Below are positions 3 to 34,138 of a stretch of 64,000 bases of DNA, piece after piece (position 1 is the first letter of the stretch; every line of letters begins with the position of its first letter). Position numbers and translations under genes: made by a program. The stretch is from Dehalococcoidia bacterium. GTDB taxonomy: Bacteria; Chloroflexota; Dehalococcoidia; UBA2979. The DNA lies in NCBI GenBank assembly GCA_965247925.1, contig CBDFIB010000004.1:1701697-1765696 (forward strand), given 5' to 3'. The notes beneath the pieces were generated by a model. That model was not told the DNA's origin. It searched no databases and saw only the letters and a list, made by a program, of their open reading frames with translations.

Positions 3-734
3 GGGCGCGGCGCGGCGGAGATCGCCGCCGAGGGCGAACTGGCGGCGGCGGCCGCGCGGGCGCTCGCCGCGGCGGCAGAGCGAGAGCCGAACGTCGCCAT
101 CGAGGTCGAGAAGCGCATACCGGCGGCGGCCGGGCTGGGCGGCGGCTCCTCGGACGCGGCGGCCGTGCTGCGCGGGCTCGCGCGGCTCTGGGAGCTCGAC
201 TGGCCGATCGAGCGGCTGGGGGAGGTCGCGGCCTCGGTCGGCTCGGACGTGCCGTTCTTCCTGCACGGGGGCACGGCGCGCTGCCGCGGGCTCGGCGAGA
301 TCGTGACGCCGCTGCGCGACCTGCGCACGCTGCGGCTGCTGCTGCTGCTGCCGCCCGTCCCGCAGGCCCCGGCGAAGACCGCGCGGCGCTTCGGCGCGCT
401 GCACCCGCACGACCTGACCGACGGCGCGCGCTCGGCGCGCATCGCGCACCGCGCCGAGCGCGACGCCCCGCCCCCGGCCCGCGATCTCTGGAACGCCTTC
501 GAGGCGGTGATCGAGCGCACGGAGTCGGAGCTGCTCGCGCACTACGCCGCCTACGCCTCCGCGCTCGGCGGCGCACCGCTGCACCTCACGGGCACCGGCC
601 CCGCCGTCTTCCTGCTGGTGCACGAGCGCGCCAGGATGACCGAGCTGCGGCGCGACCTCGAGCAGCACGGCGCCGAGGCGATTCAGGCGCGCACGCTCAA
701 GCGTGCCGAGGCGCTCGCCATCACGGAGGAGTAG
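3..734 (+). CDS. ispE: 4-diphosphocytidyl-2-C-methyl-D-erythritol kinase (5'-truncated by window edge)
   Basis: The frame is open from position 3. It contains the GHMP kinase motif EKRIPAAAGLGGGSSDAAAVL, plus VGSDVPFFL..G.A...G.GE and LTGTGPAVF. Confidence 0.92.
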   Translation, partial: GRGAAEIAAEGELAAAAARALAAAAEREPNVAIEVEKRIPAAAGLGGGSSDAAAVLRGLARLWELDWPIERLGEVAASVGSDVPFFLHGGTARCRGLGEIVTPLRDLRTLRLLLLLPPVPQAPAKTARRFGALHPHDLTDGARSARIAHRAERDAPPPARDLWNAFEAVIERTESELLAHYAAYASALGGAPLHLTGTGPAVFLLVHERARMTELRRDLEQHGAEAIQARTLKRAEALAITEE

Positions 735-1132
735 TGAGCAGCGAGGTCGAGGCCGGCCGCGCGCTCTTCGCGGGCTTCGTCTCGGGAGCGGCGGCGGCGT
801 TCGTGACGATCGCGATCGCGCTCTGGAGCATGAGCCGCAGCGCCCGCTGGCGGGAGCGCGCGGCGGGACTGAAGCGGCTGCCCGCGCCGCTGGTCGGCAT
901 CGTGCTGGTGAACGGCGCGCTGATCGGCTGGACGCTGCTCGGGCTGCTGCTCGGCGCGGCCTACCTGCAGGTGGGCGATCCGCTGCGTTTCGGGACGATC
1001 GTGCATGCGATCGCGCTGATCGCGGTCCTCGCGGCGGCGTTCGTGCTGCGGCGCCTGAGCGGCGCGATCTGGGCGACGGCGATCGTCGCCGCGGTCGCCT
1101 TCGGCATCCTGCTGCCCGCGCTCGCGGGCTGA
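734..1132 (+). CDS. Small integral membrane protein (about 4 hydrophobic helices), unknown function
   Basis: The GTG start overlaps the ispE stop (TAGTG), and the protein has four long hydrophobic segments. Confidence 0.7.
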   Translation: MSSEVEAGRALFAGFVSGAAAAFVTIAIALWSMSRSARWRERAAGLKRLPAPLVGIVLVNGALIGWTLLGLLLGAAYLQVGDPLRFGTIVHAIALIAVLAAAFVLRRLSGAIWATAIVAAVAFGILLPALAG

Positions 1133-1253
1133 GCAGAGCGATCGCGCGCCGCCGCGGGTGGTGCGGCGTATTCGGGCATCTCGTACCCTTGTGCCGGGAC
1201 CGCCGGCGGCGAGGCTGTCCGCGGGCCGCGACCGCAAGCTAAGGAGACGGACG

Positions 1254-1991
1254 CTGGAGCTGACGCCTGGACTGCAGCGCAGCGTGCTCGATATGCACGT
1301 CCACTCCGCGGTCGCATCCTCGGACAGCACGCTCAACCCGCACAAGCTGCCCGCGCTCGGCCGCGCGGCCGGGCTGACGGGCGCGAACATCTGCGAGCAC
1401 GACAAGATGTGGGAGCGGCACGCGCGCGCCGAGTACCGCGAGCAGCACACGGACTTCCTCGTCAACTTCGGGATGGAGATCTCGACCGACCTCGGGCACA
1501 TGCTCGTGATCGGCCTGCCCGCCTACGTCAGCGGGATCCGCCGCGCCGAGCAGCTGCGCGAGGAGCTCGACGCCGTCGGCGGCTTCCTGATCGTCGCGCA
1601 CCCCTTCCGCCACGTCTTCGACAGCGTGACGGCGATGCGCAAGGGCAGCGTGCGCTTCGAGCTGACCCCCGCCGAGGCGGCCCGCCTGCCGGTCTTCCAG
1701 CTCGCCGACGCGATCGAGATCGCCAACGGCTGCAATACGCCTCGCGAGAACTACTTCGCCTACGAGGTCGCTCGCGAACTCGGACTGCCGACCACCGGTG
1801 GCAGCGACGTGCACTCGGAGAGCGGCATCGGCTACTACGCGACCGGCTTCGGGCGCGAGCTGCAGACCGAAGCGGAGCTGCTCGAAGAGCTCCACGCCGG
1901 CCGCTTCGAGGCGATCGTGCGCTCCGCCGACGGAGACTTCGCGCGCTTCGAGCCGGGCGTCGTCGAGGCGGTGGCGGCGGCCCGCGGCTAG
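1254..1991 (+). CDS. PHP-domain metal-dependent phosphoesterase
   Basis: PHP motifs DMHVHS, ICEHD, GMEIST..GH, AHPF, IEIANG and GGSDVH are present. The start is uncertain: the ORF track begins at 1158, but AAGGAG (1241-1246) precedes an in-frame CTG at 1254. Confidence 0.85.
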   Translation: MELTPGLQRSVLDMHVHSAVASSDSTLNPHKLPALGRAAGLTGANICEHDKMWERHARAEYREQHTDFLVNFGMEISTDLGHMLVIGLPAYVSGIRRAEQLREELDAVGGFLIVAHPFRHVFDSVTAMRKGSVRFELTPAEAARLPVFQLADAIEIANGCNTPRENYFAYEVARELGLPTTGGSDVHSESGIGYYATGFGRELQTEAELLEELHAGRFEAIVRSADGDFARFEPGVVEAVAAARG

Positions 1992-28922: not shown

Positions 28923-29792
28923 ATGCCCCTGAAGCTCTCGACATGCCTGCTCGCGGCCATCGTCGTGCTCGCGACGGCAATCGAGGCGCCGAGGGCGCGT
29001 GCACAGGCACCGCCCAACGTGATGACGCTCAACCTCGGCGACGCGCGGGCGGTCTGGGTCCAGGACGCCGCCGGTGGATTCCACCCGTACATCTTCGGGG
29101 CGCCCGCGTTCGTCAACGCATCGTTCGTCAGCCGTTGGGTCAGCGACGGAACGCAGCCCGCGACAGGGGTGGCTCTCAACCTCGGCGGCGCGCGGTCGGT
29201 GTGGGTTCAGGACACGGCCCGTGAATTCCACTCCTACATCATTGGCGCGCCTGCATTCGTCAACGCGTCGTTCGCCGAGCACTGGATCATTGACGGGCCG
29301 TTCTTCGTGCAACCACCGACGACCCCGGTCGACCTGAGGCTCGCGAAAGTCGACATCCCGTTCGACTTTGACGACATCTGGGTCACGTGGGATGCGGTGC
29401 CGGGCGCGACCTGGTACGAGGTCTATCACTCAACGGGCGGGGAGTTCGACTTCGAGCACAGCGTCACGGACACTGGCTACCTCGACCAATACCCCAATAT
29501 CGTGCCCGGGCTCCTCGACTCCTACAAAGTTCGAGCATGCAATGCTGCTGGCTGCTCGGACCTTAGCTCGAGTGCCACGGAGACCGCGGGCAGCCTCATT
29601 TCGGCCCTCTCGATCGTCGGCGAAACCTTGGCGGACCTCGTCGGGTTCGACCTCAACGAAGCCTGCGGCCAGTTGCTTCGCGGTGCCGTCGACCTCTTCA
29701 TCACAAGTTTCCTGCCGCCCTTGGCGCCACTCCCTGGATTGATCGGTGAACTGATTGGGCCAACGGTCGCGGAAGAGCTAGCAGGCTGCTGA
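28923..29792 (+). CDS. Secreted protein with two tandem ~45-aa repeats and a fibronectin type III domain
   Basis: It has a signal peptide ending ARA-Q, two copies of LNLG.AR.VWVQD....FH.YI.GAPAFVNASF...W, and the FN3 pattern VTWDAVPGATWYEVY...Y.D......YKVRACNAAGCSDLS. The stop codon lies inside the MITE terminal repeat. Confidence 0.75.
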   Translation: MPLKLSTCLLAAIVVLATAIEAPRARAQAPPNVMTLNLGDARAVWVQDAAGGFHPYIFGAPAFVNASFVSRWVSDGTQPATGVALNLGGARSVWVQDTAREFHSYIIGAPAFVNASFAEHWIIDGPFFVQPPTTPVDLRLAKVDIPFDFDDIWVTWDAVPGATWYEVYHSTGGEFDFEHSVTDTGYLDQYPNIVPGLLDSYKVRACNAAGCSDLSSSATETAGSLISALSIVGETLADLVGFDLNEACGQLLRGAVDLFITSFLPPLAPLPGLIGELIGPTVAEELAGC

Positions 29793-30032
29793 AAAAGTCC
29801 GCGGCGGCGCTTTTGGGCTGAAATCGCGCTGGCCGCGACATCAAGAAACCCAATGTTTCTGGGCTCTACGCCAGCCCACCGAATGGCCAGTGAGACCCTA
29901 CGGCTCAGGATCAGGACTTTTTCAGATGGGATGAGGGCTGGTCTCCTCCTCAAGGGGATACTCGTCCCCGGTAAGCGGCCTCGAATCGGGCCCAGAACGG
30001 CTTCTCAGAGCCAGAGAGGTAGAAGACCAGCC

Positions 30033-31127
30033 ATGCAGCAGCATATCGCAACGGCAGAGCGCGTTGAACGGGAGGAAGCCAGCGGAGTCACCTGGGGCCT
30101 CGATGTGAGCGACCGTCACACCCAGATCTGCGTGCTCGGCCCCGCCGGGGACGTGCAGCGCGAGCAGCGCGTCCGCACGACGGCCCTCGCGCTGAGGCGA
30201 GCGCTCGGGGAGCTGCCGGCGGCACGGGCGGTGCTGGAGGCGGGACGGCACTCGCCGTGGCTGAGCCGGCTGCTGACCGAACTCGGTCACGAGGTGATTG
30301 TCGCCAACCCCCGCCAGGTAGCGCTGATCGCACGCAGCCACCGCAAGGACGACCGCAGCGACGCCGAGCAACTGGCACGGCTGGGTCGCCTCGACCCCAA
30401 GCTGCTCGCCCCGATCCGTCACCGCAGCGCGCAGGCCCAGCAGGATCTCGCGGTCGTGCGCGGCCGCGACGCGCTCGTGCGCTCGCGGACGCAGCTCATC
30501 AACCACGTGCGCGGCGCCGTCAAGGCGTGGGGCGCCGCGCTGCCGAAGGTGACCGCGCCAGCCTTCCATCGCAAGGCAGCGGAGCACATCCCGGCTGAAC
30601 TGCGCACCGCACTGCTGCCGCTGCTCGAGGTGATTGGCGAGCTCAGCGCCCGCATCGCCGCCGCCGGCCGGGAGGTCGAGGCGCTGTGCGCGGCCTACCC
30701 CGAGACCGCCGCGCTCCGCCAGGTCGCAGGCGTCGGTCCCATCACCGCCCTCACCTTCGTGCTGACGATCGAGGATCCCGCGCGCTTTCCCCGCAGCCGC
30801 GAGGTCGCACCCTACCTCGGCCTCGTGCCCAGGCGTCGCGACTCCGGCGGCCGCCACACGCAACTGGGGATCACCAAACGTGGCGACTCCCACCTGAGGC
30901 GGCTGCTCGTGCAGGCCGCGCAGTACGTCCTCGGACCGTTCGGACCAGACTGCGACTTGCGCCGCTGGGGCGAGCGCTACATGGCCTCGGGAGCGGGGAA
31001 CGCGAAGAAGCGCGCGGTCGTCGCCGTGGCGCGACGCCTCGCAGTGTTGCTGCACGCGCTCTGGCGCAGCGGCGAGGTCTATGAGCCGCTGCGCCAGGCC
31101 GCCACGGCGGAGGGGGAGGCTGCGTAG
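30033..31127 (+). CDS. IS110-family DEDD transposase/recombinase
   Basis: The RuvC-like DEDD motifs are GLDVS, VLEAG and KDDRSDA. The C-terminal domain has VAGVGPITA, YLGLVPRRRDSGG (catalytic Ser), GITKRGD..LR.LL and AVVAVARRL. Confidence 0.95.
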   Translation: MQQHIATAERVEREEASGVTWGLDVSDRHTQICVLGPAGDVQREQRVRTTALALRRALGELPAARAVLEAGRHSPWLSRLLTELGHEVIVANPRQVALIARSHRKDDRSDAEQLARLGRLDPKLLAPIRHRSAQAQQDLAVVRGRDALVRSRTQLINHVRGAVKAWGAALPKVTAPAFHRKAAEHIPAELRTALLPLLEVIGELSARIAAAGREVEALCAAYPETAALRQVAGVGPITALTFVLTIEDPARFPRSREVAPYLGLVPRRRDSGGRHTQLGITKRGDSHLRRLLVQAAQYVLGPFGPDCDLRRWGERYMASGAGNAKKRAVVAVARRLAVLLHALWRSGEVYEPLRQAATAEGEAA

Positions 31128-31173
31128 CGGGCGACGGGAAGACGGCGAACCACCACCAGACGACCACCAACGG

Positions 31174-31354
31174 CTGCACCGTGATGCTGAAGACCGGGCG
31201 ACTGCGACAGGCTGCTGGTCCACCCAAGGACGCTTTTCAGCTGGCAGCGCCCCCTGCAAGCAGGTTCCCCATCATGCACCGGGTCCAGAAGCGCGACCCC
31301 TCGGCGAGTGCGGATAGAAGCGGGGCACAGGTCACCATCCGGCATGGCGTGCAG
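31174..31354 (+). ncRNA. Predicted bridge/seek RNA of the IS1111-type element
   Basis: A closing stem (CTGCAC/GTGCAG, ATGCTG/CGGCAT, GACC/GGTC) encloses two internal loops. The target loop carries CAGGCTGCT (31208-16) and TTTTCAG (31234-40). The donor loop carries CCCATC (31268-73) and ATAGAAG (31314-20). Boundaries are approximate. Confidence 0.8.
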
Positions 31355-31513
31355 ACGGAGCGGCCACCACGTTGGCCGACTTGCAGATCGGACCAGCCCT
31401 CATAGAAGCAGCCTGCTAGGCTGCCAGTAGACTCCCTCGCCTGTGGACGGCCTGTTGAACGGGGGCGCGGGGGGCTACACTGGGGCACATCCCCGGAGAG
31501 GCGCGCTGACGCC

Positions 31514-34138
31514 CTGACCACCCCCGTCCGACGGCAGTACCTGGCGCTCAAGGCGCAGCATCGCGATGCGTTGCTGCTGTTCCGCATGGGCGACTTCTAC
31601 GAGGCGTTCGACGACGATGCGGCGCGGCTGGCGGAGACGCTCGGCATCGCGCTCACCTCGCGGCCGCTCGGCAAGGGCGAGGCGCGCGTGCCGATGGCCG
31701 GGATCCCGCACCACGCGCTCGAACGCTACCTCGATCAGCTCGTGACGGCGGGGCTGCGCGTCGCGCTCGCCGAGCAGGTCGAGCGCGCCGGCCGCGGGCT
31801 CGTCGAGCGGCGCGTGCTGCGCGTCGTCACGCCCGGCACCGTCGAGGGCGGCGCGCTGCTGCCGGAGGGCAGCCACAACTGGCTGGTGGCGCTCGCGCCG
31901 GAGGCGGCGGCGCGGCGGCGCGGCGGGGACGTCGAGCGGCGCTGGGGCCTCGCCGCCTGCGACGCGACCACCGGCGAGCTGGAATGCCAGCTCGTCGCCG
32001 AGGGCGCGCTGGGCGGGGAGCTGGCGCGGCTGGCGGCGCGCGAGCTGCTGCTGCCCGAGGGCGCGGCCGGGGCGCTGCCCGAGGACCTCGCGCCCGAGGC
32101 GCGGCGCACGGCGCGACCGGCGCGGGCGTTCGCGCCCGCCACGGCGGCGCGCGCGCTCTGCGAGCGCTACGGCGTCGCCAGCCTCGACGGCTTCGGGCTG
32201 GCGGGTCTGGATGCCGCCGTGGGGGCGGCGGGGGCGCTGCTCGGCTACCTCGAGGAGTCGTGGCCGCAGGCGCTGCGCCAACTGCGCACGCCGCGCACGC
32301 CGCGGCCCGGCGAGTTCGTCGCGCTCGATGCGCAGACGCGGCGCACGCTGGAGCTGTTCGAGAGCACGGGCGGGCCCGAGAGCACGCTGCTGGGGACGCT
32401 CGATCGCACGCTGACGGGGCCCGGCGCGCGGCTGCTGCGCGAGCGGCTGGGGCGTCCGCTGCGCGACGCGGCGGCGGCCGAGGCGCGGCTCGACGAGCTC
32501 GCGGCCTGGCTCGAGGCGCCGCTGGCGCGCTCGGCGCTGCGGCGCGCGCTGCGCGGGCTGCCGGATCTGGAGCGGCTGCTGGGGCGCGTGCGCGCGGGCA
32601 GCGCGGGGCCTCGCCAGTTGCTGCAGCTGCGGCGCGGTCTGGAGCGGCTGCCGGAGCTGGCCGCGCAGGCCCGCGCGGCCGGCGGCGCGGCGGCGCCGAT
32701 CGCCGCCGATCTCGGCGGCACGGGCGAGGCCGCCGAGGCGCTGGCGGCGGCGCTGGCCGACGATCCGCCGGAGGCCGGCGAGGGCGAGTCGCTGCGGCCG
32801 GGCGCGGACGCGGAGCTCGACGCGCTGCGCGCGGTCGCCGCCGATGCGCGCGGGGCGCTCGCGGCGCTGGAGACGGCGGAGCGCGAGCGCAGCGGGCTGC
32901 GCAGCCTCAAGGTCGGCTACCACCGCGTCTTCGGCTACTACCTCGAGCTGCCGCGCTCGCAGGCCTCGCAGGCGCCGCCGGAGTACGAGCCGCGCCAGAC
33001 GCTGGCGAACGCGCAGCGCTTCCGCTACCGCCCGCTGAGCGAGCTCGAGGACCGCATCCTCGGCGCGAAGGAGCGGCTGGTCGAGGCCGAGCAGGCGGCG
33101 CTGGCGCGGCTCTGCGAGCAGGTCGCGGCGGCCGGGCCCGCGATCGAGCGGGCGGCGGCGGGCGTCGCGCGGCTCGATGTGGCTGCGGCGCTGGCGGAGG
33201 TCGCCGCCGACGGCGGCTACGCGCGGCCGCTGTTGCGCCCGGCGGGGCCGATCGTGATCGAGGACGGGCGTCACCCGGTGGTCGAGCGGCGGCTCGATCC
33301 GGGCGCGTTCGTGCCCAACGACCTGAGCCTCGGCGACGGGACCGAGATCGTGCTGCTGACCGGGCCGAACATGGGCGGCAAGTCCACCTACCTGCGGCAG
33401 GCGGCGCTGATGGTGCTGCTCGCGCAGTGCGGCAGCTACGTGCCGGCCGCGCGCGCCGAGGTCGGGATGGTCGACGCGATCTTCACGCGCGTCGGGGCGC
33501 ACGACGATCTCGCGGGGGGGCGCTCGACATTCATGCTGGAGATGGTGGAGACGGCGCAGATCCTGCACCGCGCGACGGAGCGATCGCTGGTGCTGCTCGA
33601 CGAGATCGGGCGGGGCACCTCGACGCGCGACGGGCTGGCGATCGCGCGCGCGGTGGTGGAGGCGCTGCACCACCGCCCGGGCGGCGCGCCGCGCACGCTG
33701 TTCGCGACGCACTACCGCGAGCTGACGGCGCTGGCGGGCGTGCTGCCGCGCGTGACGAACCGCGCCGTGGCGGTCGCCGAGCAGGGCGGCGAGCTGGTCT
33801 TCCTGCATCGCATCGAGGACGGCGCGTCGGACCGCGCTTACGGGGTGCACGTCGCCGCGCTGGCGGGGCTGCCGCGCGCCGTGGTCTCGCGGGCGCGCGA
33901 GCTGCTCGCACAGCTCGAGGCGGAGCCGCAGGGCGCGGGCTGGGCCGAGCGTCCGGCTGCCGCGGCGGCGGACGCGCTGCCGGGCGACGGGCAGCTATCG
34001 CTGCTGGCCGCGCCGCCGGACGCGCTGACCGAGGAGCTGGCGCGGCTCGATCCGGACGAGCTGAGCCCGCTGGAGGCGCTGCAGCGCCTCTACGAGCTGC
34101 GCGCCGCGGCGCGGGCGCGCCTCGGCGTGGAGGGCTGA
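31514..34138 (+). CDS. mutS: DNA mismatch repair protein MutS
   Basis: Motifs are TPVRRQYL.LK, FRMGDFYE, MAGIPHHA, GRHPVVE, TGPNMGGKSTYLRQ, STFMLEM, DEIGRGTS and FATHY. The conserved N-terminus extends upstream of the tracked TTG to an in-frame CTG at 31514. Confidence 0.96.
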   Translation: MTTPVRRQYLALKAQHRDALLLFRMGDFYEAFDDDAARLAETLGIALTSRPLGKGEARVPMAGIPHHALERYLDQLVTAGLRVALAEQVERAGRGLVERRVLRVVTPGTVEGGALLPEGSHNWLVALAPEAAARRRGGDVERRWGLAACDATTGELECQLVAEGALGGELARLAARELLLPEGAAGALPEDLAPEARRTARPARAFAPATAARALCERYGVASLDGFGLAGLDAAVGAAGALLGYLEESWPQALRQLRTPRTPRPGEFVALDAQTRRTLELFESTGGPESTLLGTLDRTLTGPGARLLRERLGRPLRDAAAAEARLDELAAWLEAPLARSALRRALRGLPDLERLLGRVRAGSAGPRQLLQLRRGLERLPELAAQARAAGGAAAPIAADLGGTGEAAEALAAALADDPPEAGEGESLRPGADAELDALRAVAADARGALAALETAERERSGLRSLKVGYHRVFGYYLELPRSQASQAPPEYEPRQTLANAQRFRYRPLSELEDRILGAKERLVEAEQAALARLCEQVAAAGPAIERAAAGVARLDVAAALAEVAADGGYARPLLRPAGPIVIEDGRHPVVERRLDPGAFVPNDLSLGDGTEIVLLTGPNMGGKSTYLRQAALMVLLAQCGSYVPAARAEVGMVDAIFTRVGAHDDLAGGRSTFMLEMVETAQILHRATERSLVLLDEIGRGTSTRDGLAIARAVVEALHHRPGGAPRTLFATHYRELTALAGVLPRVTNRAVAVAEQGGELVFLHRIEDGASDRAYGVHVAALAGLPRAVVSRARELLAQLEAEPQGAGWAERPAAAAADALPGDGQLSLLAAPPDALTEELARLDPDELSPLEALQRLYELRAAARARLGVEG

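Follow-up and report, generated by a model that had tools for sequence, protein, structure and literature searches.

The window analyzed here, a stretch of 64,000 nt from the genome of a Dehalococcoidia bacterium (contig CBDFIB010000004.1, positions 1,701,697 to 1,765,696), contains an insertion sequence (IS), denoted IS-A, which interrupts a miniature inverted-repeat transposable element (MITE) and consists of a transposase gene followed by a 3' non-coding region (NCR) that encodes a predicted RNA. With a probability of about 0.88, we consider IS-A to be an apparently active member of the IS1111 group of the IS110 family that uses a bispecific bridge/seek RNA mechanism. This assessment is based on the anatomy of the element, its copy number, its site specificity, the covariation within the RNA scaffold and the covariation of guides with flanks, as observed in this work. 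The transposase matches the Pfam families PF01548 (DEDD_Tnp_IS110, 66.7 bits, cut-off 29) and PF02371 (Transposase_20, 82.6 bits, cut-off 21.3), as well as the NCBIfam model NF033542, "IS110 family RNA-guided transposase" (234.8 bits, cut-off 140), a name that the protein would thus already receive in routine annotation. IS1111 transposases are marked by a C-terminal GL-P----S(t)G motif (Siddiquee et al., 2024, PMC11187229). The elements of this group have subterminal inverted repeats of 7–17 bp, to which short extensions are added at the termini; their right ends are described as long and their subterminal repeats as longer (Durrant et al., 2024, PMC11208160). In the IS-A transposase, the motif is GLVPRRRDSG (residues 263–272), in which G263, P266, S271 and G272 do not vary across 17 homologues. 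The subterminal inverted repeats, read directly from the sequence, form a perfect 13-bp pair (29931–43/31391–403) with the extensions ATGGG on the left and AGA plus AG on the right, and the ends in full are ggactttttcAG/ATGGG-ATGAGGGCTGGTC ... GACCAGCCCTCAT-AGA-AG/cagcctgctag, where slashes mark the junctions, that is, ggactttttcAG/atgggATGAGGGCTGGTC on the left and GACCAGCCCTCATagaAG/cagcctgctag on the right. The left non-coding end comprises 107 nt (29926–30032) and the right end, with 281 nt, is longer, so that the NCR is located downstream of the gene, as in the IS1111 group.

When the flanks are rejoined without the IS, the sequence GGACTTTTTC-AG-CAGCCTGCTAG is obtained, which is the right terminal inverted repeat (TIR) of a MITE of 159 bp with a perfect TIR of 23 bp. 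About 89 BLAST pieces of this MITE are present in the genome, 60 of them full length, with 93–98% identity. Read on the minus strand, the empty site is CAGGCTG-CT-GAAAA, and the corresponding junction of a circle would be ...ATCCCAT-CT-TCTAT.... The exact 14-mer CAGGCTG-CT-GAAAA occurs 76 times unoccupied in the 3.48-Mb host genome, each time with a single core. Altogether, 27 copies of IS-A with both ends were found in the host genome, 25 of which are full length (1483 bp), and 18 of these are letter-identical to the copy in the window. All 27 copies are inserted in the context tttttcAG–IS–cagcctgct(a/g)ag, in one orientation relative to the TIR. Thus, insertion is specific for sequence and orientation and produces no target duplication beyond the shared core, as is typical of the IS1111 group. 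Since there are many near-identical copies as well as many free sites, IS-A has apparently been active recently. The transposase family, the location in the terminal repeat of a MITE, the empty site and the circle junction had all been proposed in the first-pass annotation of the sequence, and all of them were borne out, the latter two by the reading of the junctions.

The flanks of the IS-A copies are not all of one kind: 20 are typical of the right end of the MITE, and seven copies have the other end as their flank, with an unlike sequence following on the right. In these seven, the left-end-type repeat is joined to …cagcctgctgaggctgtcgcac…, possibly the end of another element. Inward-facing pairs of exact 14-mers are never spaced by less than about 1.9 kb, and therefore no unoccupied MITE has the exact target word at both ends. 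One further MITE left end that was read has the sequence CAGGGTGATGAAAA. The MITE in the window has two perfect 23-bp repeats; its left TIR (29778–29800) is intact and contains an unoccupied target 14-mer (29782–29795, CAGGCTGCTGAAAA), so that a free target is still present beside the inserted IS-A. When four metagenome contig sets were compared with the region 29300–32000, the IS and the MITE were collapsed as repeats, and no piece spanned the element. Directly downstream of the MITE with its IS, an ORF of 855 amino acids (31571–34138, plus strand) is listed that, judged by eye, may be a DNA mismatch repair gene.

The predicted RNA consists of a target-binding loop and a putative donor-binding loop that are separated by a short linker hairpin (Table 1). 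The strands of the first outer stem (31196–205/31244–52) and of its inner stem (31218–21/31228–31), the two segments exposed in the first loop (31208–16 and 31234–40) and the two segments exposed in the second loop (CCCATC at 31268–73 and ATAGAAG at 31314–20), which the first-pass annotation had listed, are all present at these positions.

Table 1. Coordinates of IS-A, its predicted RNA, the interrupted MITE and the sister element IS-B. Positions refer to the window unless the host genome is indicated.
Feature	Position	Strand	Remarks
MITE, left 148 bp	29778–29925	n/a	through the target core AG (29924–25)
IS-A, whole insertion sequence	29926–31408	+	1483 bp including one copy of the AG core (31407–08)
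Left subterminal inverted repeat	29931–29943	+	ATGAGGGCTGGTC; 5 nt (ATGGG) inside the left end; reverse complement of 31391–31403
Transposase	30033–31127	+	364 amino acids; DEDD/RuvC-like N-terminal domain and Transposase_20 C-terminal domain; motif GLVPRRRDSG
3' NCR	31128–31408	+	281 nt, encoding the predicted RNA
Conserved bridge/seek RNA core	31195–31330	+	covariance-model match, 103.2 bits; boundaries are those of the match, not RNA ends
Predicted target-binding loop	31196–31252	+	outer stem GGGCG-A-CTGC 31196–31205 / GCAG-CGCCC 31244–31252
Left target guide	31208–16	+	CAGGCTGCT (CAGGCTG+CT)
Inner hairpin of target loop	31218–31231	+	GTCC 31218–21 / GGAC 31228–31
Right target guide	31234–40	+	TTTTC+AG
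Candidate handshake position	31241–42	+	CU; concept from Hiraizumi et al., 2024, PMC11208158
Short linker hairpin	31253–31264	+	CCTG-CAAG-CAGG; retained in nearest relatives only
Probable donor-binding loop	31267–31325	+	stem GCACC 31276–80 with G-GTGC 31306–11; hairpin GGGTC/GACCC 31281–85/31295–99
Left donor guide	31267–73	+	(C)CCCAT+C
Right donor guide	31314–20	+	ATAGA+AG
Outward-facing −35-like hexamer	31381–31386	+	TTGCAG, near the right end, by eye; TTGACA in most homologues
Right subterminal inverted repeat	31391–31403	+	GACCAGCCCTCAT; followed by AGA and the core AG
MITE, last 11 bp	31409–31419	n/a	cagcctgctag; outer portion of the right TIR, which the IS interrupts
IS-B, full copy (locus L106)	host genome C4:504205–505730		end of the partial copy near C4:999516

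Relatives of the transposase are numerous. At least 7949 of 8000 scored candidates had E values of 1e-20 or below, the best of them with 60–88% identity and nearly all from metagenome assemblies, and a scan of species-representative genomes yielded 570 confirmed relatives, from which 80 loci with 53–74% identity were kept. The labels of the relatives include Dehalococcoidia, Acidobacteriota, Gemmatimonadota, Actinomycetota, Thermoleophilia, Chloroflexia, Planctomycetota and Eremiobacterota, among others. Among 401 genomes of the phylum of the window, a protein search with E values up to 1e-40 gave matches solely in the window's own genome. Of the plasmid-borne IS110-family genes that were found, none exceeds 37% identity to the clade. 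Downstream of the transposase genes, a common scaffold was observed. Its target part consists of GGGyGACUGCG, a variable segment, a hairpin, a second variable segment that ends with AG, and nnGCAGCrCC; after the linker follow a segment, GCACC, a hairpin, GUGCG and (G/A)AU(G/A)GAAGC. In these loci, the right subterminal repeat and the terminal CAT(G/A)GAAG are found 70–200 nt beyond the scaffold.

An RNAalifold analysis of 19 sequences resulted in 21 base pairs, nine of them with compensatory changes, and a covariance model, termed R1, was built from this alignment. Of the 55 sources that were searched, 52 contained matches to R1, 55 in total; every one of them follows the transposase gene and has its orientation. 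In the 64-kb window there is only one match, 31195–31330. In the R1 alignment (53 distinct rows), 97.5% of the pair cells were standard pairs, compared to 88.5% in shuffles, and 12 of the 21 pairs were changed on both sides, that is, in a compensatory manner. None of 500 shuffles attained any of the five pairing measures, and when the partners were moved by one to three columns, pairing dropped to 29–46%. These comparisons indicate that the NCR of IS-A has the conserved two-loop secondary structure of a bridge RNA or seekRNA. Published covariance models had already predicted a bridge RNA within the right end for 93.0% of the IS1111 elements (Durrant et al., 2024, PMC11208160). A reading of the RNA from the minus strand was also considered and was rejected, because all 55 matches lie on the transposase strand and the layout is the published IS1111 order.

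At two places, NCRs with an altered organization were found. In one of the related loci (L026:2592–3654), a tandem duplication has affected the NCR (periods of 322, 294 and 119 nt, 99–100% matches), which has three matches to R1. The 119-nt unit starts in the DNA for the right donor guide and reaches to the true right end; ATAGAAG is present at both places. This looks like recombination between the end and the element's own guide-encoding DNA, which would have served as a pseudo-end, or like an assembly artefact. The second case is a decayed remnant of IS-A in the host genome (C4:1353834–1354147, minus strand), in which a piece of a MITE end, about 56 nt long, takes the place of the target-loop region. 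The MITE piece is joined at the linker hairpin, and the donor loop and the right end are intact.

If the variable segments of the first loop are guides, they should recur in the DNA that flanks each element. For the comparison, 72 of 82 sequences (81 loci, L026 to L106, and the window) could be parsed, which represent 45 guide types; the other ten lacked an anchor motif, a recognizable right end or 10 nt of flank. For the left flank, eight further sequences had no definable boundary, and 64 remained. The score was the number of junction-adjacent flank bases that, together with the core, recurred exactly in the element's own guide segment. The 5' guide matched its own right flank with at least 4 nt plus the core C in 50 of the 72 cases, compared to 5.8% of 3168 non-self pairings, and with at least 6 nt in 27 of the 72 (non-self, 1.0% of 3168). 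For the 3' guide and its own left flank, at least 4 nt plus AG were found in 40 of 64 cases, compared to 1.9% of 2816 non-self pairings. The non-self control is conservative, because related guide types share targets. Some pairs of almost identical elements differ by matched single changes. The guide AAGACCTG is found with the flank caggtctt at L049 and ACGACCTG with caggtcgt at L065, GTAATGGC with gccattac at L089 and GTAATCGC with gcgattac at L100, and AAGTC with gactt at L060 and AACTC with gagtt at L070. Judged from these alignments, changes in the target flanks are accompanied by changes in the nucleotides of the loop, for both strands, and the two matches overlap at the core.

The host genome itself offers a further comparison. 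It contains a sister element, IS-B, with 76% DNA identity to IS-A, in five full copies and one partial copy. IS-B has the same stems, but the guides GCGACCTG-CT and GGCAG-AG replace CAGGCTG-CT and TTTTC-AG. Three of the five full copies are located in (g)g(c/a)agAG–IS–(c)aggtcg, which is the site predicted by the IS-B guides. The predicted target, CGACCTG-CT-CTGCC, has a sole exact empty copy, which lies in an istB gene at the codons for the Walker B sequence FDLLCLDE (locus L107, C4:1059455–1061254, ORF 624–1406, minus strand; IstB_IS21, PF01695, 193 bits), and one occupied IS-B site has the same istB Walker B context. From its guides and sites, IS-B thus appears to use elements of the IS21 family as prey, in a manner similar to that of ISEc21 with IS3 transposase genes. 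Taken together, a covariance model of the homologues and a co-variation of guides and flanks, both of which had been named in the first-pass annotation as ways to verify the RNA, were indeed obtained, the latter across the related loci as well as between IS-A and IS-B.

Several observations weigh against a bispecific RNA in IS-A. The minimum free energy structure computed with RNAfold for the plus strand recovered both stems of the first loop as well as the GCAC/GTGC and GGGTC/GACCC stems of the second, as had been predicted, but it was no more stable than shuffled sequences (z = +1.79 for the plus strand and +1.51 for the minus strand). Because thermodynamics supports neither strand, strand and structure were decided from the homologues, and the alignment in which the pairs were counted had been fitted to the model's own structure, which favors that structure. 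The same minimum free energy structure also pairs CCCC (31267–70) with GGGG (31322–25), possibly as a closing pairing, and therefore some bases of the left donor guide may be unavailable in the free RNA. A search of the region 29700–31600 with Rfam 15, at E values up to 10, gave no relevant match, only a spurious one to a long non-coding RNA, which shows only that none of the 4227 models catches the IS-A RNA. In the linear DNA, a consensus scan revealed neither a sigma-70-like promoter nor an intrinsic terminator, and RNA from IS-A was not observed, no RNA run being among those listed for the sequence. In the flank comparison, 22 of 72 5' guides and 24 of 64 3' guides were below the match threshold, and some loci (L026, L027, L034 and L035) look rearranged. 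Finally, the left donor guide agreed with the left end at four or more of five positions in register in 18 of 26 distinct combinations, compared to 28.8% of non-self combinations, a weak covariation.

This last point bears on the role of the second loop. The variation of the left extension is low, 13 of the 26 combinations sharing ATGGG, and in most relatives the base adjoining the core is mismatched in the left donor guide. IS-A is the sole case in which the left donor guide matches at five of five positions plus the core C, and elements with a 6-nt left extension fit better if one donor base is skipped. According to one alternative, the target loop alone acts as a guide, as in the short seekRNA model, and the second loop does not bind the donor; the ends would then be recognized via the subterminal repeats, the protein and the flanking target halves, and the likeness of the second loop to the IS ends would reflect a conserved end sequence or another role. 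In the published descriptions, the predominant transposase-bound IS1111 RNAs are indeed short (82–96 nt), only target matches are described for them, and circle formation was shown to be influenced by the target halves in the flanks (Siddiquee et al., 2024, PMC11187229). The weak covariation of the left donor guide is in accord with this, as is the occurrence of the right donor guide in only two main forms. However, these two forms track the A/G difference of the right ends. In 68 of 72 insertions, the 7-mer of the right donor guide is identical to the last seven bases of the element, and this also holds where ATAGAAG is exchanged for ATGGAAG. Furthermore, the left guide does follow the rarer left extensions (CTCA, CCTTA, TCAT and GCC types), the stems of the second loop (helices 3 and 4) have compensatory changes, and donor loops have been described in IS1111 bridge RNAs (Durrant et al., 2024, PMC11208160). 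We therefore regard a guiding role of the target loop alone as unlikely. Because the right donor guide is clear and the left one follows only loosely, the second loop was rated as a probable donor loop, and the alternative was kept. Of the two donor guides proposed in the first-pass annotation, the right one is thus well founded, whereas the left one has modest backing and may be internally paired. That the matches between NCR and target are instead relics at the DNA level, that is, captured MITE or target fragments or recombination scars, with the protein choosing the site, appears hardly tenable, although the decayed IS-A copy with a MITE end in its target-loop region reveals that DNA exchange between NCR and MITE does happen and the listing of no RNA run would fit as well, since 45 guide types from several phyla have their half-matches at the same two scaffold positions, on opposite strands and overlapping at the core, the guide letters change with the flanks while the stems stay paired, and non-MITE targets behave alike, for example that of IS-B in istB.

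If IS-A indeed uses a bispecific RNA, its transposition can be envisaged as follows, with transcription, RNA-protein binding, the circular intermediate and the chemistry modeled on published work on IS621 and ISEc11. The DEDD transposase would be made, probably from a promoter that is formed when the ends are joined in the circular intermediate. The hexamer TTGCAG near the right end may be one half of such a junction promoter, as its position fits the published junction promoters of the family. The 3' NCR would be transcribed from the same strand into the bispecific bridge/seek RNA. The target would be the 14-bp sequence CAGGCTG-CT-GAAAA in the TIR of the abundant 159-bp MITE, the top strand being defined as the strand opposite the transposase gene, and CCCAU-C and AUAGA-AG of the donor loop would pair with the ends of the IS after their joining (...CCCAT-CT-TCTAT...). 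By recombination at the CT core, the element would then be inserted in one orientation and without target duplication.

Not all IS-B copies are found at sites that their own guides predict. Two of the five full copies and the partial copy are located in a MITE-TIR site of the IS-A type, in spite of the IS-B guides. An insertion of IS-B into the IS-A target via its own guides was rejected, as by eye only four of seven and zero of five positions are common with this target. The right ends of IS-A and IS-B are identical, and the left donor guide of IS-A agrees, by eye, with the left end of IS-B at four of five positions in register, compared to two of five for IS-B's own guide. This suggests that the IS-A RNA may mobilize IS-B in trans. 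A second peculiarity concerns the first base of IS-A (29926 and its equivalents), which is changed from A to C in three of the 27 copies (C3, plus strand, and C4, minus strand) that have no other change in common. It is the only recurrent polymorphism; all remaining differences among the copies are private. The C renders the left end complementary to CU at 31241–42, the two bases that directly follow the right target guide on its 3' side, and it also equals the target's own base at that position next to the core. The equivalents of 31241–42 in IS621 are described as "handshake guides"; once the exchange has taken place, their pairing partner is the incoming donor strand (Hiraizumi et al., 2024, PMC11208158). 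The C could thus be a footprint of a handshake or crossover during strand exchange, and a single lineage of three copies explains it equally well. The combined picture, in which an abundant complex of IS-A RNA and transposase mobilizes IS-B by cross-talk and the first-base C is a trace of strand exchange, is tentative, and we lean somewhat toward doubting it.

IS-A is a clean new example of a known mechanism, not a new mechanism, and for this reason the finding opens no new question. Its value lies in the material: an apparently recently active element with directly readable target and donor guides from a genome with 70% GC. The clade to which it belongs extends across metagenome-assembled genomes with the various labels given above, and its single scaffold is combined with natural guide/target pairs by the dozen. 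From this ready set, the guide rules of the IS1111 branch, which has been studied less, could be learned, and orthologues could be selected for trials as insertion tools. In addition, the two elements are cases of mobile elements preying on mobile elements, IS-A on the terminal repeat of a MITE and IS-B on the helper gene of IS21.

Among the characterized systems, the seekRNAs of ISEc11, ISPa11 and ISKpn4 are, by their description, similar to the RNA of IS-A. In these elements, too, the NCR is downstream of the transposase gene, and the GL-P----S(t)G motif is found in the transposase; of the two matches, which overlap where the insertion takes place, that to the top strand lies 5' of the other (Siddiquee et al., 2024, PMC11187229). 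In the same account, the transposases of IS1111 elements co-purify with a seekRNA that stems from the NCR, and the RNAs of these three elements were found to co-purify with the transposase and to be reprogrammable, whereas IS-A is known from sequence alone. The transposase of IS-A, with 364 amino acids, is slightly longer than the 330–350 amino acids quoted there for IS1111. IS1111 seekRNAs are further described as having the top-strand match 5' of the bottom-strand match, and those of IS110 as reversed (Siddiquee et al., 2024, PMC11187229). In IS-A, the 5' guide corresponds to the minus strand and the 3' guide to the plus strand, which is the IS1111 order. The first-pass annotation had remarked that the CT core is read on the strand opposite the transposase ORF; this position is correct, but, given the guide order, it follows the rule of the family and is no peculiarity. 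For IS-B, the closest parallel is ISEc21, a member of the IS110 group whose target is a block of conserved codons within transposase genes of the IS3 family (Siddiquee et al., 2024, PMC11187229). Both are RNA-guided IS elements that land inside a conserved gene of another IS, but they belong to different groups, with the NCR upstream in ISEc21 and downstream in IS-B, and their prey elements differ.

The RNA of IS621 (Durrant et al., 2024, PMC11208160; Hiraizumi et al., 2024, PMC11208158) also has two loops, the 5' side of which matches the left half plus core and the 3' side of which is complementary to the core plus right half. The loop geometry, with 9 and 7 nt, is that of IS-A if the strand opposite the transposase gene is taken as the top strand, and both elements have a CT core as well as DEDD and serine chemistry domains. 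In contrast, the RNA is encoded upstream of the transposase gene in IS621 and downstream in IS-A, the core is on the transposase strand in the former and on the opposite strand in the latter, and IS621 targets REP sequences, whereas IS-A targets a MITE TIR. Of the IS-A transposase, only the C-terminal domain is matched by the solved structures (IS621, 8wt6, E 3.6e-6; ISCro4, 9t56, E 2.8e-7).

Targeting of the terminal repeat of another transposon is reportedly known for IS4321 and IS5075. The target of IS4321 is a 38-bp transposon inverted repeat, compared to the MITE TIR in the case of IS-A. Like IS-A, IS4321 has subterminal inverted repeats, a long 3' NCR, a fixed orientation and a TIR of another transposable element as its target. 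Its hosts are plasmids of Enterobacterales, whereas IS-A is found in a genome with 70% GC and has its closest relatives in metagenome-assembled genomes of Dehalococcoidia. In the titles and abstract openings among the matches listed, no IS110/IS1111 element that targets a MITE TIR was found. The IS4321 transposase is 28.7% identical to that of IS-A over 64% of the query, and the alignment spans residues 68–300, compared to only 227–355 for IS621, which hints at a grouping with IS1111-type transposases. The core, as read from the flanks, is TT/AA in IS4321 and AG/CT in IS-A. R1 matches the 3' NCR of a plasmid copy of IS4321 end to end (23.3 bits, E 1.5e-5 in 3.1 kb). In the aligned loops, read by eye, AAAACGGAAA and ATTTTC match the flanks in the terminal repeat of the interrupted transposon, and GGATAGATTC matches the right end of IS4321. 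Thus, the match to R1 and the readings of the loops indicate that the predicted RNA of IS-A is the same kind of object as in a classical member of the IS1111 group.

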